In this document: positions 6,700 through 14,801 of the stretch, piece by piece
Numbering within the stretch: position 1 is the stretch's first letter
Layout: every line of letters begins with the position of its first letter
Origin: a bacterium
GTDB taxonomy: Bacteria > Bacillota_I > Bacilli_A > RF39 > UBA660
Direction of reading: 5' to 3'
Length of the DNA stretch: 14,801 bases
Assembly (NCBI GenBank): GCA_030539175.1
Contig: JAUNSN010000019.1
Coordinates: 9,208-24,008, forward strand
Position numbers and translations under genes: made by a program
Notes under the pieces: model-generated
Seen by the model: only the letters and a program-made list of their open reading frames with translations
Told to the model about the DNA's origin: nothing
Databases searched by the model: none

Positions 6700-7158
6700 T
6701 TAACTACTTGTTTTTGGTGCTACACCACTGTATTTACCTGTTGTTGTTCCCACCAAAGTAACTATAAATTTACCACTTGCACTTTTAACAACATACGAAC
6801 ATGGAGGAGTACCGCCACTACTAGAATCATAATTTGCTAAACTTGCATCAGCACTAGCAATTAAGTATTCTGTAGTTACTAAATCTGCCGCTTCTGCCTC
6901 TTTAGTCGTAATACAACGTGCTTTCCCATCAGTAAAATCAGATAACACTTTCTCACTAGCATCTACTAAATTATCTTTAACATACTGATCTCCATAAAAT
7001 TTGGCCACAGCTTCCGCTGAAGATTGTAAAGCACTTTCTTTTGCCGTGTCACTTGCATCCAATACTGTCGGTACTGCTATTATTAAAATAATCGCTAATA
7101 TAACAATAACCGCTAATAACTCAATTAATGTAAAACCTTTAGAATTTAACTTTTTCAT
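6700..7158 (-). CDS. Prepilin-type (type IV pilin / pseudopilin-like) protein with N-terminal cleavage/methylation motif
   Basis: MKKLNSKG|FTLIELLAVIVILAIILIIAVP is a class III signal peptide with Gly-1, Phe+1 and Glu+5. There are two Cys residues (ARCITT, PPCSYV) in the C-terminal half. The Ala/Ser/Thr/Gly-rich composition is visibly less AT-rich than the neighbouring genes. Confidence 0.8.
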   Translation of the reverse strand: MKKLNSKGFTLIELLAVIVILAIILIIAVPTVLDASDTAKESALQSSAEAVAKFYGDQYVKDNLVDASEKVLSDFTDGKARCITTKEAEAADLVTTEYLIASADASLANYDSSSGGTPPCSYVVKSASGKFIVTLVGTTTGKYSGVAPKTSS

Positions 7159-8801: not shown

Positions 8802-9603
8802 TTTTATATCCTAAATCATCAAAAGTTAGTTGTTCATCAACAACATGTTTATTTTTATTATTATAAATATAAGATTTATTCAAAGAATCTTTATTAGAAA
8901 TACAAAAAGCTATTAAAGGATTAGTCGACCCATCATTTATCCATGTACTTAAAAAATCACCATACATCTTAAGTGTATATTTATTAAACTCTATACCATA
9001 TTTTAAAAAAGTATTCGCAACAGTATCAAGATTATAATAATCACACTCTTCTTTATAAGCTTCTCTTTGCTCTTCTACATCTTGCATTAAAACATCTTCT
9101 TTTTTCCGAGGATGTAACAGAAAATAAGCATCACGATATTTCCTATAAGTACTCAAATAAGAAGAAACTATTTTTCCTATCTCATATATCTCATTATCAT
9201 CACTATATTTCTCTACTTGAGAATTATAGTGATATACATACCAACATCTTCTCACAAAATCATTTTTACTTGTTAAGGTTCTTTTACAAGCAGATGGACA
9301 AATAAGTTTAATTAAACTATCAATATTATCTTTACTACTACATATATACTTTAGATATTCTAATTTTATAGACTCAGTTTCTTTTAAGTTTTTAGCATCA
9401 TTATTATAAACAATATTTAACTTTTTCTTCTCTTTATACCTAATAGTTACTTTACCTTTAGTCATACCATTATCATTAAGTAATTCTTTTACACTTTCAT
9501 ATTTAGAAGTATAGTTATCAATTTCTTTTAAATTACAATTACTCATTAATATTCTGCTCTTGCCAAATTCATCAATTAATACTAACTCATATGTTACTTT
9601 CAT
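8791..9603 (-). CDS. Hypothetical protein (270 aa), no recognisable family; translationally coupled to the Xer gene
   Basis: Long open frame in a stop-rich AT genome. RBS AAGGAGAG lies 7 nt before the ATG at 9603. The stop overlaps the Xer start by 11 nt. No TM segment or catalytic motif was recognised. Confidence 0.6.
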   Translation of the reverse strand: MKVTYELVLIDEFGKSRILMSNCNLKEIDNYTSKYESVKELLNDNGMTKGKVTIRYKEKKKLNIVYNNDAKNLKETESIKLEYLKYICSSKDNIDSLIKLICPSACKRTLTSKNDFVRRCWYVYHYNSQVEKYSDDNEIYEIGKIVSSYLSTYRKYRDAYFLLHPRKKEDVLMQDVEEQREAYKEECDYYNLDTVANTFLKYGIEFNKYTLKMYGDFLSTWINDGSTNPLIAFCISNKDSLNKSYIYNNKNKHVVDEQLTFDDLGYKNGR

Positions 9604-10161: not shown

Positions 10162-11259
10162 TTATAAATCAGACAAATCTGCTCGATTACGTAAGAAAGA
10201 TGGTATTTCCAAATCACTTTCGCCATCACTCATTGAGGATATCTTTTCACGTGATATTGGATCTCTTTCCTTGGTTCCTAAATTATGATATAGTGGATCA
10301 CTACGTTGCTCAAAACCAGTTGCAATAACAGTAACAATAACTTCATCAGCTAAATTTTCATTAATAATAGCACCAAATATTGTATTAATATCAGTATTAG
10401 CCGCACTTCTAATAACCTCAGCAGCTTCCTCTACTTCATACAAAGTTAAGTTAGAACCACCAGTAACATTAATTATTGCATCAGTCGCTCCACTTATTGA
10501 AGTTTCCAACAATGGACTAGATACTGCTTGTTTAGCCGCTTCAACAGCTCTATTATCACCAGCACCAACACCAATACCAATTAAAGCATTACCTCTATCT
10601 TGCATAACTGTTTTTACATCAGCAAAGTCCAAATTAACAAGTCCAGCAGTTGCAATTAAATCAGAAATAGACTGAACACCACGTAATAAAACATTATCAA
10701 CTTCACGAAAAGCTTCTAACATTGGAGTAGATTTATCTATCAATTCTCTTAATCGATCATTAGGTATTACTATTAAAGTATCAACATACTTTTTTAATTC
10801 TTCTAACCCAGCAAGAGCTTGTTCCATCCTTCTTCTTCCCTCAAAAGAAAATGGTTTAGTAACAATACCCACAGTCAAAGCTCCCAAATCTTGGGCAATT
10901 TCGGCAACTATAGGAGAAGCACCAGTTCCTGTTCCTCCACCCATGCCACAAGTAACAAAGACCATATCCGCCCCCTTTAGAACTTCTTCAATTTCTTTCT
11001 TACTTTCTAAAGCCGCCTCTCTACCAATTTCTGGATTAGCCCCAGCACCAAGACCATCCGTTAACTCACTACCAATTTGTAACTTATTAGTTGCTTGTGA
11101 ATTATTTAAAACCTGTAAATCAGTATTAGCAACAATAAACTCAACGCCTTTTAACCCTGACTCTATCATTCTATTTACTGCATTACAACCTCCCCCACCA
11201 ACACCAATTACTTTTATTTTTGCTAAATTATCCATTTCTAAACCAAACATATTTGTCAT
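10162..11259 (-). CDS. ftsZ: Cell division protein FtsZ
   Basis: [17 protein letters not shown], the tubulin signature GGGTGTG ([13 protein letters not shown]), NDRL, and the C-terminal conserved peptide DLEIPSFLR. The start overlaps the ftsA stop (TAATG), and the RBS AGGAGG lies inside the ftsA 3' end. Confidence 0.97.
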
Positions 11260-12512
11260 TATTTTTCCTCCTTACTACTAAATAAACCACCAAAAAGTTT
11301 TGTAATCTTTGTATCATCATGTTTCCGAGCTTTATCATCACTAGGAGTAACCAGTTGCAATTCTTCCAAAGAATTTACCATAGAATAGTCTTTACCCCTA
11401 ACTAACATCTTATGATGAAAATATTTTATCATCCCTAAACTTGTAGTATATTTATTATCTCTTACCCCCAATGTTGGTATTGAATATATTATAACATCTT
11501 TTCCAAAAATTTCATAGGCTAAATACTTAAATGATTTAATTTCTGTCATTCCCCCAGTTATTATAACATAACTAATACTTTGTTTAGTTAATGATAATAT
11601 TTGTTTTTTTACTATCGCCATTATCTCTTTTAATCGCGACATTATAACTTCACAAGTTTCTAATTGATTTATTTTCACCATCTCTCCATTACTATTTTTA
11701 ACCTCATAAACATCATTTAATTGAGTAAAACGTTTATGAGCACATCCAAACTTTTCTTTCATTTCTCGAGCATCAATTACATTAATTCCAAACACTACAG
11801 ACAAATCATTATCAATATTCTTTCCCCCTAGTTGAATTACTGAAGTATTCATTAATTTTGCCTTATTAACTATTGATACAGTAGTTGTTTGATGCCCTAA
11901 GTTAATAACTGCCCCTACTTGCTTATCTAACTGATTATTCCGAACTTCGTAATAATCTCCAATACCAGACAAAGTAATATCAACAACTTCTAATCCCGCT
12001 CCAACTACAACACTAACAACTGAATAAACATTTTTCTGGGGAACAGAAACAATAATACCTTTCATCAGCAATTTTTTTCCTTTAATACCAACTGGAAACT
12101 CTAAATTCTTAATATCATCAACCGTAAAATTAATTGGTATAACAGTAACCAGTTCAAAATCAGGATCTATCTTTTTATAAACACTATTCTTAATTATTTT
12201 ATTAACATCAAAACTAGTAACCCCCTCATCAGATAAATCTAATGACTCATTTACAAGTATAAACTTCACATCATAAGCTGGAACTCCAACAATAACCTTT
12301 TTAATTGGAATACCTAGTAAATTCTCTACTTCTTTACTACCATCTTTTATCGCATTAATTGCTAAATTGGCATCCACTATTAAACCTTTTCTAATTCCAG
12401 AAGATTTCTTAGCATAAGAAGCTAGTACTACAACCTCTTTACCAACCACTTCTCCAACTACAAACTTAATCGTATCCGTACCAATATCAATACTTGTATA
12501 AATCTTTCTCAT
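11259..12512 (-). CDS. ftsA: Cell division protein FtsA
   Basis: Actin-like fold N-terminus [18 protein letters not shown], an ITGGMTEI phosphate-2-like motif, and a C-terminal amphipathic tail KLFGGLFSS. Canonical position upstream of ftsZ. Confidence 0.95.
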
Positions 12513-12637
12513 CTATATCGAGCTCCCATTTTTCTATCTCAAAACAATTATAACCTAATTTTATAAAAAATAAAAGTGATTATTATAACAAATATCTAAA
12601 TATTTTACCCAACAACACCATTTTACTACATTTTTAC

Positions 12638-12666
12638 AAAAAAACAACTACCATTTACTAGTAGTT
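12638..12666 (-). terminator. Weak candidate terminator between the DGR operon and ftsA
   Basis: Minus strand: aactac-tagtaaatg-gtagtt (6-bp stem), then gTTTTTTTg (12638-12644). The stem is short and AT-rich, so confidence is low. Confidence 0.35.
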
Positions 12667-12697
12667 ATCATTTTTTTTACAATATCCTCAGAATCAT

Positions 12698-12742
12698 AAT
12701 TATATCAATCAATAAAATATCATTTTATTGATTGATATAATT
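12698..12742. repeat. Perfect 21-bp inverted repeat with a 3-nt loop, spanning the RT stop codon
   Basis: aattatatcaatcaataaaat (12698-12718) and attttattgattgatataatt (12722-12742) are exact reverse complements. The RT stop TAA (12727..12725) lies inside one arm. No U-tract follows on either strand. Confidence 0.9.
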
Positions 12743-13750
12743 TACTCGACTATTTACCTTCTTCATTAAGTTATAACTATTACCATGCATTGCATGACCA
12801 ACAATCGAGTTATAACTTAATATAAATCTCTTCTTATCTAACTTATTATCACTATATAACTTATTCCATAACTTTATTCTTTTATTAACATTCTTCTTAA
12901 AACTATTTCTTACTAATCGATATTCTTCATATATTCTATAACCACAAAAATTTATCCCCATCTTATTAGGATAATATCTACTTTTAGGATTTAATGTTAA
13001 CTTTAATTCTTTATTTAAAAATTCCTCTACTAATCTATATATTAACTTACTCTTTATTTTATCCTCTACCAATATAACAAAATCATCCATATATCTTACA
13101 TAATACTTAATCTTTAATATATCTTTTATATAAAAATCTAACTTACTTAAATATATATTAGCAAAATACTGACTACTATAAGCCCCTATCCCTATACCAG
13201 TAGAAGCATCATCCATATATATAAAACTCTTAGTTATCTCTAATATCTTCTTATCACTTATCTTATCCGCTAATATCTCATATAATATAACCTTATCTAT
13301 ACTATAAAAATATTTCCTTATATCTAACTTAATAACATAATACCCCGCATATTTTTCTCTCATCTTTCTCATATACCCCTGTAATACATCCACTGCCTTA
13401 TGTGTCCCCCTATTATCTAAACAAGCATAAGTATCTTTCTTAAACCTAACATCAAAATAAGGCTTTATCACCTCAAACGTATACCAATTATTAACAACCC
13501 TATCTCTATACGGCAGAGCCTTAATCACTCGTTCTTTAGGTTCATATATAACAAATTCTCTTGGTTTTCCCACTTTATAAGTATTATTCTTTAAACTATT
13601 TAATATATTAATCACATTAGTTTCAATATCCATATTAAAACTAAGAACTTCCTTAGTATTTTTACAACTAGAACTTACTCGATGCGATGCCTCTAACAAT
13701 TTGACAAAAGTACAACATTTGTCAAATTGGTTGCGAACAGTTTTTCCCAT
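12725..13750 (-). CDS. Diversity-generating retroelement (DGR) reverse transcriptase
   Basis: 341 aa and collinear with Bordetella phage BPP-1 bRT as recalled: MGK start, REFVIYEPKERVIKALPYRDRVV, TYACLDNRGTHKA, KLDIRKYFYSID, the DGR-specific GIGIGAYSSQYFANIYL (IGxxxSQ), YVRYMDDFVIL (YxDD), GINFCGYRI, and the C-terminal SIVGHAMHG. No intron maturase/endonuclease domain or retron-type domain is present. Confidence 0.9.
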   Translation of the reverse strand: MGKTVRNQFDKCCTFVKLLEASHRVSSSCKNTKEVLSFNMDIETNVINILNSLKNNTYKVGKPREFVIYEPKERVIKALPYRDRVVNNWYTFEVIKPYFDVRFKKDTYACLDNRGTHKAVDVLQGYMRKMREKYAGYYVIKLDIRKYFYSIDKVILYEILADKISDKKILEITKSFIYMDDASTGIGIGAYSSQYFANIYLSKLDFYIKDILKIKYYVRYMDDFVILVEDKIKSKLIYRLVEEFLNKELKLTLNPKSRYYPNKMGINFCGYRIYEEYRLVRNSFKKNVNKRIKLWNKLYSDNKLDKKRFILSYNSIVGHAMHGNSYNLMKKVNSRVNYINQ

Positions 13751-14090
13751 TTTTCATCCATCCATACAATAAATTAGTCACATCCGTTATCTTTCTTGCC
13801 CAAGCTTCATAATTTCTTACATTAATAAATCTTTGACTATAAGATATTCGAGATAATACTTTTATCATCTTAAGTTCAGCATCTATTTCATTAAATAAGT
13901 GATATCTATTAGTTTTATCAGATTCTTTATATGCTTTAATAATTAATCTCATCGTATTATAACTTACATTTTTAATTTGACTTACTAACGATAGTTTTTC
14001 ACTTTTAGGATATTTTTTAACTATCATCTCTGTATAGTATAAAAGACCCATCATTTGTTTATATATTAACAACCCATCAATACTATTCAT
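13722..14090 (-). CDS. avd: Avd-type accessory variability determinant (four-helix-bundle / 23S rRNA-IVS protein family)
   Basis: 122 aa and predicted helical. Family pattern YPKSEKLSLVSQIKNVSYNTMRLIIKAY and a C-terminal W..K...V..LLYGWMK. The ATGA overlap with the upstream ORF implies coupling, and there is a 29-nt out-of-frame overlap with the RT start. Confidence 0.8.
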   Translation of the reverse strand: MNSIDGLLIYKQMMGLLYYTEMIVKKYPKSEKLSLVSQIKNVSYNTMRLIIKAYKESDKTNRYHLFNEIDAELKMIKVLSRISYSQRFINVRNYEAWARKITDVTNLLYGWMKNGKNCSQPI

Positions 14091-14437
14091 ACCAATTCCC
14101 TTAATTCATTCAATTTTTTAAAAGCATCTATTGGTGTTAAATTATCAAAGTCTATTTCTTTTAACTTCTTAGTTAAAAGATGCTCCGCTTGTTCTTTATC
14201 TACTTCAACCATCACAATATCCAAATTCATATTTTTAAATATCAACAAATACTTATCCAAAGATTTAATAGGAAACCCACATCTTTTCATCTTACCAAAA
14301 TATCCCAACTTTAAAGTAGTAACTTGCGATATTTTAACTGCATCTTCTTCTAAAAATAAATAAAATATCCCACTTTTAAATAAATATATCTTATCTTTAT
14401 TTTCAGCCTTTAGTTTTTTATACTTCTCTTCGTACAC
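14087..14437 (-). CDS. MutS domain-I-like small protein (MSL-type DGR accessory ORF)
   Basis: 116 aa with a GTG start after [43 protein letters not shown] aligns with the E. coli MutS N-terminus [48 protein letters not shown] aligns with AGIPYHAVENYLAKL. No ATPase or clamp domains are present. Confidence 0.7.
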   Translation of the reverse strand: [116 protein letters not shown]

Positions 14438-14496
14438 TTTTCTTCTTCCCTTCTAACTTTCAATCAACTCTCATAACAGCATCATTTATAAGAGCC

Positions 14497-14536
14497 TTCC
14501 TAAAACCTAAAAGTAAAAACTTTTAGGTTTTAGGAA
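14497..14536. repeat. Perfect 17-bp inverted repeat with a 6-nt loop in the non-coding spacer upstream of the DGR operon
   Basis: ttcctaaaacctaaaag (14497-14513) and cttttaggttttaggaa (14520-14536) are exact reverse complements. Each arm contains a tandem cctaaaa heptamer. No U-tract follows on either strand. Confidence 0.9.
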
Positions 14537-14702
14537 AACAATAGTTTTCCCACAACATTCTAATGCGCAAATACTCTACTAACTAGTTTGTTGCTAGTAA
14601 ATGTTTATTACAATACCTAAAGATATCATAACAGGACATTGGTCTTGACTATCAGACTATTGATGTTAATCCTTAAACTAACATATTTAAAGTATATTTG
14701 AT

Positions 14703-14801
14703 AGTAATCGCAAGCCACAAAGGCCGACGCCCGCGAGCCGTTGTTATTGTTCGCATTGCCATTGTTGTTGTTAAAGTTGAACGCGCCCGCATTGGCACCA
14801 T
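14703..14801 (-). repeat. DGR template repeat (TR) candidate, truncated by the window edge; the alternative is an undiversified variable repeat (VR)
   Basis: Minus-strand frame from 14799 reads GANAGAFNFNNNNGNANNNNGSRASAFVAC. All 22 adenines in the first 30 codons sit in 11 AAY codons. About 54% G+C by hand count (14711-14801), against AT-rich flanks. Contains the GC block GGCTCGCGGGCGTCGGCC (14739..14722). Confidence 0.7.

Follow-up and report, generated by a model that had tools for sequence, protein, structure and literature searches.

A template repeat fragment and an RT-14-like RNA upstream of an overlapping msl-avd-RT operon in a contig of the RF39 lineage

The stretch of DNA analyzed here (the window, 14,801 nt) comprises positions 9,208 to 24,008 of contig JAUNSN010000019.1, from a bacterium of the RF39 lineage of Bacillota_I (GenBank assembly GCA_030539175.1), and its overall GC content is 27%. 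On its reverse strand it carries three overlapping genes, msl, avd, and a reverse transcriptase (RT) gene, which we read as the protein-coding part of a diversity-generating retroelement (DGR). Upstream of them, at the window end, lies a piece of a template repeat (TR) joined to a structured RNA that resembles the Rfam family RT-14. The features are as follows.

14087..14437, minus strand: msl, 116 aa, GTG start, MutS domain I only (Pfam MutS_I)
13722..14090, minus strand: avd (accessory variability determinant), 122 aa (Pfam bAvd, PF22296)
12725..13750, minus strand: DGR reverse transcriptase, 341 aa (PDB 8ub7, RVT_1)
14712..14801, minus strand: TR, 3′ portion only, 52% GC, recognized by blastn to the TRs of relatives and cut by the window and contig end
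14550..14711, minus strand: structured RNA, RT-14-like (Rfam RF02921 and our model R1), directly 3′ of the TR
14495..14538, minus strand: 19-bp hairpin between the RNA and msl, with 15 perfect pairs, CCTAAAACCTAAAAG / CTTTTAGGTTTTAGG
12638..12738, minus strand: probable operon end, as read from the sequence (putative function)

The three overlapping genes

The stop codon of msl and the start codon of avd share the sequence ATGA at 14090..14087, a 4-nt overlap, and the start of the RT gene overlaps the 3′ end of avd by 29 nt (13722..13750) in a different frame. An earlier note, made from the sequence alone, had described both overlaps, and the open reading frame (ORF) list and the sequence confirm them at these coordinates. 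Since the avd and RT genes overlap, there is no space between them for a TR, as the note had also pointed out. We place the start of the RT gene at 13750 because its product aligns residue 1 to residue 1 with the RT of a Bordetella phage, bRT (MGKTVRN versus MGKRHRN).

Among solved structures, bRT (PDB 8ub7 series) is the best match of the window RT, with an E value of 5.7e-48. Residues 1-330 align collinearly to 1-317 of the 8ub7 chain, the motif IGAYSSQ aligns with IGSLTSQ of bRT, and YMDD is present in both, which bears out the earlier claim that the two enzymes are collinear. The I-G-x-x-x-S-Q columns are invariant across 37 RT homologues. Pfam RVT_1 also matches the protein (9.6e-14), and it has 2179 homologues at E<=1e-20. 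We considered that this might be the RT of another kind of retroelement, such as a group II intron, a retron, or an Abi/UG or DRT system, with neighbors that are there by coincidence. The NCBIfam matches point that way: the first is a group II intron RT/maturase (104 bits), followed by Drt3a (56.4 bits) and retron RT (50.6 bits), and no DGR-RT family is among them. However, these scores are far under the respective cutoffs of 300, 200, and 235 bits. bRT is the best solved structure by 35 orders of magnitude, the next PDB matches being group II intron RTs (7.6e-13) and retron-type RTs (~1e-10), and an Rfam scan found no intron or retron RNA near the window RT. Furthermore, Avd and MSL adjoin the RT, and its relatives have A-biased pairs of a TR and a variable repeat (VR). 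We give this explanation hardly any credence.

The 122-aa product of the second gene matches bAvd PF22296 at 7.7e-18, with 65.4 bits against a cutoff of 40, so that its earlier assignment as Avd passed the profile search. NCBIfam DivGenRetAVD matches it at 5.7e-17 with 61.9 bits, under the cutoff of 80, and a PDB sequence search with Avd gave nothing meaningful. The msl product matches MutS_I at 6.7e-11 (42.9 bits, cutoff 20.6). Its alignment with MutS is restricted to the mismatch-binding domain at the N terminus, with weak PDB matches, and it consists of domain I alone in 116 aa, without the ATPase domain; the mutS1 model gives 33 bits against a cutoff of 642, and this is not a full MutS. 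In MutS, the Phe of the Phe-x-Glu motif stacks on mismatches. The motif GxFY is kept in the MSL proteins of 43 relatives. Its Phe, which corresponds to Phe36 of MutS, never varies, but Glu is never found at the counterpart of Glu38: 38 of the 43 have Ile or Leu there, and the window has Leu. The family motif reads Y-L-F-K-S-G-x-F-Y-[IL]-F-L-x-[ED]-D-A. By these sequence comparisons, the window RT is a DGR-class RT, the 122-aa ORF is Avd-like, and the first ORF is the "MSL" of Wu et al. 2018.

The template repeat and the RNA at its 3′ end

Two sets of relatives served for comparison: set 1, 83 loci whose RT is 43-56% identical to the window RT, and set 2, 80 loci on viral contigs with an RT 34-42% identical to it. 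We screened for TR/VR pairs, that is, repeat pairs with mismatches at the adenines of one copy, and detected such A-biased pairs in 115 loci.

The TR fragment differs from the rest of the window in its composition. Apart from 10851..11025 inside ftsZ, 14701..14800 is the only place where 100-nt segments have a GC content of >=0.45. Translated in the VR reading frame, the fragment gives GANAGAFNFNNNNGNANNNNGSRASAFVA, in which 11 of the 29 codons are AAY (Asn). It aligns to approximately positions 57-137 of the TRs of relatives, which are ~145 nt long, and it ends ~275 nt upstream of the MSL start. The earlier note had put this distance at about 270 nt and had called the segment the only TR-like sequence, lying 5′ of the first gene; this agrees with what we find. 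Within the window, a repeat search and blastn found no second TR copy. The 212-nt region 3′ of the RT gene (12513..12724), previously described as lacking GC-rich or AAY-rich segments, contains no TR-like segment and is not matched by the TR-RNA model on either strand. Of the features by which a DGR is recognized, three are present in the window: an RT with (I/L)GxxxSQ and YxDD, a noncoding, AAY-rich TR near the RT, and a bAvd-like Avd.

It could be argued that the AAY-rich segment is not a TR but a VR with which a target gene ends, the TR being elsewhere. Relatives also have a VR upstream of MSL, and one frame runs on from the window edge, past ~30 AT-rich codons, and closes only with a TGA near 14630. 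However, the VR of relatives ends >500 nt from MSL, and the target ORF, judged on five full-length targets, stops 3-11 nt from the VR end. By blastn the fragment matches the TRs of 31 relatives versus one VR, and its many Asn AAY codons likewise speak for a TR. Finally, the RT-14-like RNA adjoins the fragment. This RNA is beside the TR in every locus in which a TR was detected and never beside the VR, and it occurs once per locus, except in the locus L014. A VR at this position is therefore very improbable. The TR, we conclude, lies 5′ of the whole operon, as the earlier note had deduced, because the fragment matches TRs, its distance from MSL fits that in relatives, and the structured RNA adjoins it.

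The only other contig with the exact RT, an identical Logan contig (L001), stops 9 nt past the window end. A contig break inside the TR is to be expected, because TR/VR repeats break assemblies.

In order, the structured RNA consists of a long-range helix (P1) that starts from the TR end, a hairpin with the loop UUUAAGGA, a UCCU motif, and a second hairpin; the 3′ part has AUAAACA and then a helix enclosing GUUAGUA. Rfam RF02921 (RT-14) matches it over the full model (1-144) with 41.7 bits and an E value of 1.6e-4, and the RT-14 consensus helices and loops (UAAGG hairpin loop, UCC, AUAAAC, UAGUA) are found in the window in consensus order. A regex scan for RNA motifs was too noisy, and we used instead a covariance model, R1, built on an alignment of 13 sequences that excludes the window. 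In a window-only, unfiltered search, R1 matched 14711..14550 (minus strand) over the full model length with 38.3 bits (E = 1.5e-5; next best, 0.21). It also matched 59 of the 83 set 1 relatives.

RNAalifold on the first MAFFT alignment gave two helices only; we drew in P1 and P5 manually and checked them against controls. For the hand-drawn five-helix structure, 89.7% of cells in the 13 sequences are paired, versus 37-49% with slid partners. Both sides have changed in 26 of the 36 pairs, and none of 500 shuffles reached any of the observed measures. Across 63 R1 matches, 92.9% of cells are paired (slid controls, 32-50%) and 30 of 33 pairs have double changes, figures that lean towards the structure because the alignment was fitted to the model. 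The columns of a candidate loop-to-UCC pseudoknot are invariant, which puts it beyond the reach of covariation.

Layouts in relatives and the place of the RNA

Wherever both genes were found in a set 1 locus, avd abuts the RT gene; the gap between them is mostly -1 to +5 nt and ranges from -13 to +43 nt. In set 2, avd ends ~250-520 nt before the RT gene in all but two of the loci with a detected avd, and the layout is mostly the textbook VR-avd-TR-RT. Twenty set 1 loci have the order VR-TR-MSL-avd-RT, in which the TR ends 203-478 nt from MSL. Another 14 have MSL-avd-RT-(TR)-(VR), with the TR and the target on the opposite strand 3′ of the RT gene. Each of these layouts, TR-upstream and opposite-strand, also occurs without MSL (four set 1 loci each), and a few set 1 loci are avd-RT-MSL. 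A small subclade (L043, L045, L046, and L049) has its MutS-like ORF 3′ of the RT gene in this way, not 5′ of avd.

In a rough neighbor-joining tree of the RTs, the group in which avd abuts RT is one clade, the opposite-strand layout is a subclade nested in it, and the window is placed among the TR-upstream members with MSL. Taken together, the layouts and the tree indicate that the window layout is the commonest state of a large clade, not an oddity. The rarity that the earlier note had implied does not hold, given that avd abuts RT throughout the 83 relatives of set 1 and that variant orders were on record (PMC5758913).

The place of the RNA was then compared across these layouts. Conserved blocks and compensating helices align 3′ of the TRs in both the TR-upstream and the opposite-strand layouts, and over all layouts the start of the RNA lies, in the median, -2 nt from where TR/VR homology stops (n = 49). 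The Rfam RT-14 model itself scores above gathering in L067 (53.1 bits) and in L085, L087, L095, L096, L136, and L143 (52-78 bits). In the canonical avd-TR-RT loci L087, L095, L096, L136, and L143, RT-14 exactly fills the TR-to-RT spacer. In L085, which has the layout avd-RT-TR, RT-14 is just 3′ of the RT gene and no TR/VR pair was detected; in L086, a relative of L085, the TR is 3′ of the RT gene. With the gathering threshold applied, Rfam overlooked the window RNA as well as that of the TR-upstream loci L005, L012, and L027 and of the opposite-strand locus L060. RT-1 to RT-19 were described as candidate structured RNAs near RT genes by Weinberg et al. 2017 (PMC5737381). Only RT-10 was tied there to a DGR, as the TR-brt spacer of BPP-1; RT-14 was left unassigned, and it was speculated that others belong to other DGRs (PMC5737381). 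In the literature we searched, no paper tying RT-14 to DGRs was found.

L014, which has no MSL, carries four tandem modules of TR plus RT-14-like RNA, ~330 nt each, 5′ of avd (L014:3760-5090). The TR 3′ ends and the RNAs of these modules are near-identical, the AAY-rich cores differ, and the first core is seemingly degenerate. Only the last TR pairs with the VR in the locus, and a DGR with multiple TRs is unusual. Tandem Repeats Finder reported nothing on L014, though the four modules exist. On the viral contig L095, an Rfam Intron_gpII match (45.1 bits) lies at 7060-7130 on the opposite strand, just 3′ of the canonical DGR RT.

The targets of relatives are proteins of 469-689 aa with a C-terminal VR. 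One of them (L027:3290-4846) carries at its N terminus a type IV pilin-like prokaryotic methylation motif (PF07963, above cutoff); near its C-terminal VR there is a weak match to FGE-sulfatase/C-type-lectin. Three other targets had no Pfam match.

The cassette is directly upstream of ftsA-ftsZ in the window (10162-12512), in L004 (11566-13909), and in L032 (3640-5980). FtsZ of L004 and L032 is 83-84% identical to that of the window, whereas the RT is only 49% identical. This neighborhood is either a conserved insertion site or the mark of a cassette evolving fast in one lineage. On gene context, its presence in all three loci suggests that the element is chromosomal and at least partly vertically inherited.

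Transcription, proposed mechanism, and known systems

RNAfold of 14725..14438, the region from the TR end to msl, gave a z score of -6.98. In relatives, a crude pattern for a hairpin followed by a T-run was matched <=130 nt from the RNA in 44 downstream regions out of 57 distinct ones, a count that includes some chance matches in AT-rich DNA. About half of those hairpins start within ~12 nt of the RNA end, and in TR-upstream loci the hairpin lies 15-40 nt before the msl start. The proximity of such hairpins to the RNA suggests that the DGR RNA may be a discrete transcript, with the operon reached by read-through. In the window, a small hairpin at 14533-14551 (GGGAAAAC-TATT-GTTTTCC) shares bases with the 19-bp hairpin (14495-14538), in the 5′ arm of the latter, and the two are mutually exclusive. 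They might form a switch, or the overlap might be chance in AT-rich sequence.

At the other end of the operon, an AT-rich palindrome with 17 perfect bp, listed among the inverted repeats, covers the RT stop codon (12738..12702). Next, at 12666..12638 and still before the upstream region of ftsA, comes a small, weak hairpin plus a T-run (aactac...gtagtt gttttttt). A terminator scan of the window found nothing; its criterion was three G-C pairs, and the hairpin at 12666..12638 went unscored under this rule. ftsA and ftsZ then sit downstream of the RT operon.

We consider it very probable that the locus is a chromosomal DGR of the MSL type, in which the TR and an obligatory RT-14-like RNA of ~160 nt lie 5′ of a translationally coupled msl-avd-RT operon. 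Several points weigh against this. The TR is incomplete, its 5′ third (~55-65 nt) being missing beyond the window end. The VR and the target gene are absent from the window. The RNA falls under the RT-14 gathering score (41.7 versus 48.1 bits), and the 19-bp hairpin has no T-run at the site where many relatives have a hairpin with one. A promoter scan of the window gave 15 promoter-like sites versus 17 expected by chance. Finally, the roles that we propose below for P1 and MSL are drawn by analogy.

Some of these points would also suit a decayed or orphaned remnant that has lost its target or suffered disruption of its TR and no longer diversifies. Besides the absent VR and target and the T-run lost from the hairpin, the R1 score is consistent with decay: 38 bits in the window, versus >55 in most relatives (range, 34-139). 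However, the three ORFs are intact, with the catalytic YMDD and the other conserved motifs, and the RNA retains its four helices and its conserved loops. In addition, two independent assemblies stop within the TR, as would be expected if the genome held a second, nearly identical copy, the VR. A remnant is accordingly improbable.

The Sp RNA of BPP-1, which lies 3′ of the TR, base-pairs with the end of the TR, gives the priming adenosine, and wraps bRT-Avd; Sp is needed for cis-priming, and stem-loops just 3′ of the TR are kept in 207 other DGRs (bioRxiv 10.1101/2023.10.23.563531). On this model, the TR and the adjoining RNA of the window would either lead the operon mRNA at its 5′ end or form an RNA of their own that stops at the hairpin, and RT-Avd would bind the structured RNA. 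In P1, the 3′ end of the TR is predicted to pair with a segment ~90 nt downstream, followed by an invariant unpaired A, which would make this the cis-priming site; since the pairing is next to this A, P1 is a candidate template:primer duplex. We therefore propose RT-14 as the putative Sp equivalent of this DGR group. An adenine-mutagenized cDNA of the TR would then replace the VR in which the target gene ends; this gene would lie upstream, beyond the window end. In Bacteroides, host MutS cuts retrohoming 5- to 10-fold (bioRxiv 10.1101/2024.11.15.621889). The probable substrate of MSL, a mismatch-binding protein that has no ATPase, is the mismatched cDNA:VR heteroduplex, which it might for instance shield from host MutS; by this comparison such a role is plausible. 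During evolution, the TR and the RNA moved as a unit, after which the protein genes joined up into the overlapping operon; relocation of the module probably left the mechanism unchanged. One can go further and suppose that TR plus RT-14 is a relocatable, self-contained transcription unit acting in trans on RT-Avd, the opposite-strand TR subclade showing that the RT need not be co-transcribed with it, that the hairpin sets read-through into RT, Avd, and MSL (leaky or constitutive in the window), and that MSL is a dedicated heteroduplex shield. This extension is speculative, and we regard it as possible but on balance unlikely.

Earlier work had recorded variant gene orders of DGRs, cassettes with MSL, and opposite-strand TRs (PMC5758913), and the element is not a new type of system. 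Two modest additions are new here: in every layout an RT-14-type RNA always comes directly after the TR, and Rfam RT-14 is assigned to DGRs. DGR finders that expect the TR between avd and RT would miss it in this large, mostly gut-associated Bacillota clade, whereas the rule of a TR followed by RT-14 locates TRs in all layouts seen. An orphan Rfam family thereby gains a function, as RT-14 would be the Sp-equivalent priming or scaffold RNA of many DGRs. The assignment supports the view of Handa et al. that RNA-guided cis-priming is general.

Of the known systems, the DGR of BPP-1 (mtd-avd-TR-Sp-brt; cryo-EM, 8ub7 series) resembles the window in the collinear RT with IGxxxSQ and YMDD and in its Avd. 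In both, a structured RNA follows the TR, in BPP-1 Sp (Rfam RT-10). Unlike BPP-1, where the TR and Sp separate avd from brt, the window has its TR-RNA module 5′ of the accessory genes; its RNA is RT-14-like and not RT-10, there is an extra MSL gene, and the element resides in a chromosome beside ftsA-ftsZ rather than in a phage. Because its TR and RNA do not follow avd, the 3′ end of avd in the window cannot supply an Sp-pairing segment upstream of the TR, as it does in BPP-1. Rfam RF02921 has the same helices and conserved loops as the window RNA, a copy under the gathering score.

In gene content, the window resembles Architecture D of Wu et al. 2018, in which a MutS-like protein of 112-283 aa is found with avd and without HRDC; the MSL of the window, at 116 aa, falls within this range, and its cassette likewise has no HRDC gene. 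In that survey the MSL accessory gene was present in 16 of 372 DGRs, always with avd (PMC5758913). The Bacteroides DGRs with Msl (Bfr, Bth, and Bun; Macadangdang et al. 2024 preprint) also have a small MutS domain I protein together with avd and RT, but they belong to another phylum and diversify pilus tip proteins. Among the 48 architectures of Wu et al. are the layouts avd-RT-TR and TR-(avd)-RT as well as cases with TR and RT on opposite strands (PMC5758913). Two of these architectures, B2 (avd-RT-TR) and B3 (TR-(avd)-RT), have the TR outside an adjacent avd and RT, as in the window. They differ from it in having no MSL, and in B3, a layout characteristic of organisms of the Candidate Phyla Radiation, avd is on the reverse strand.

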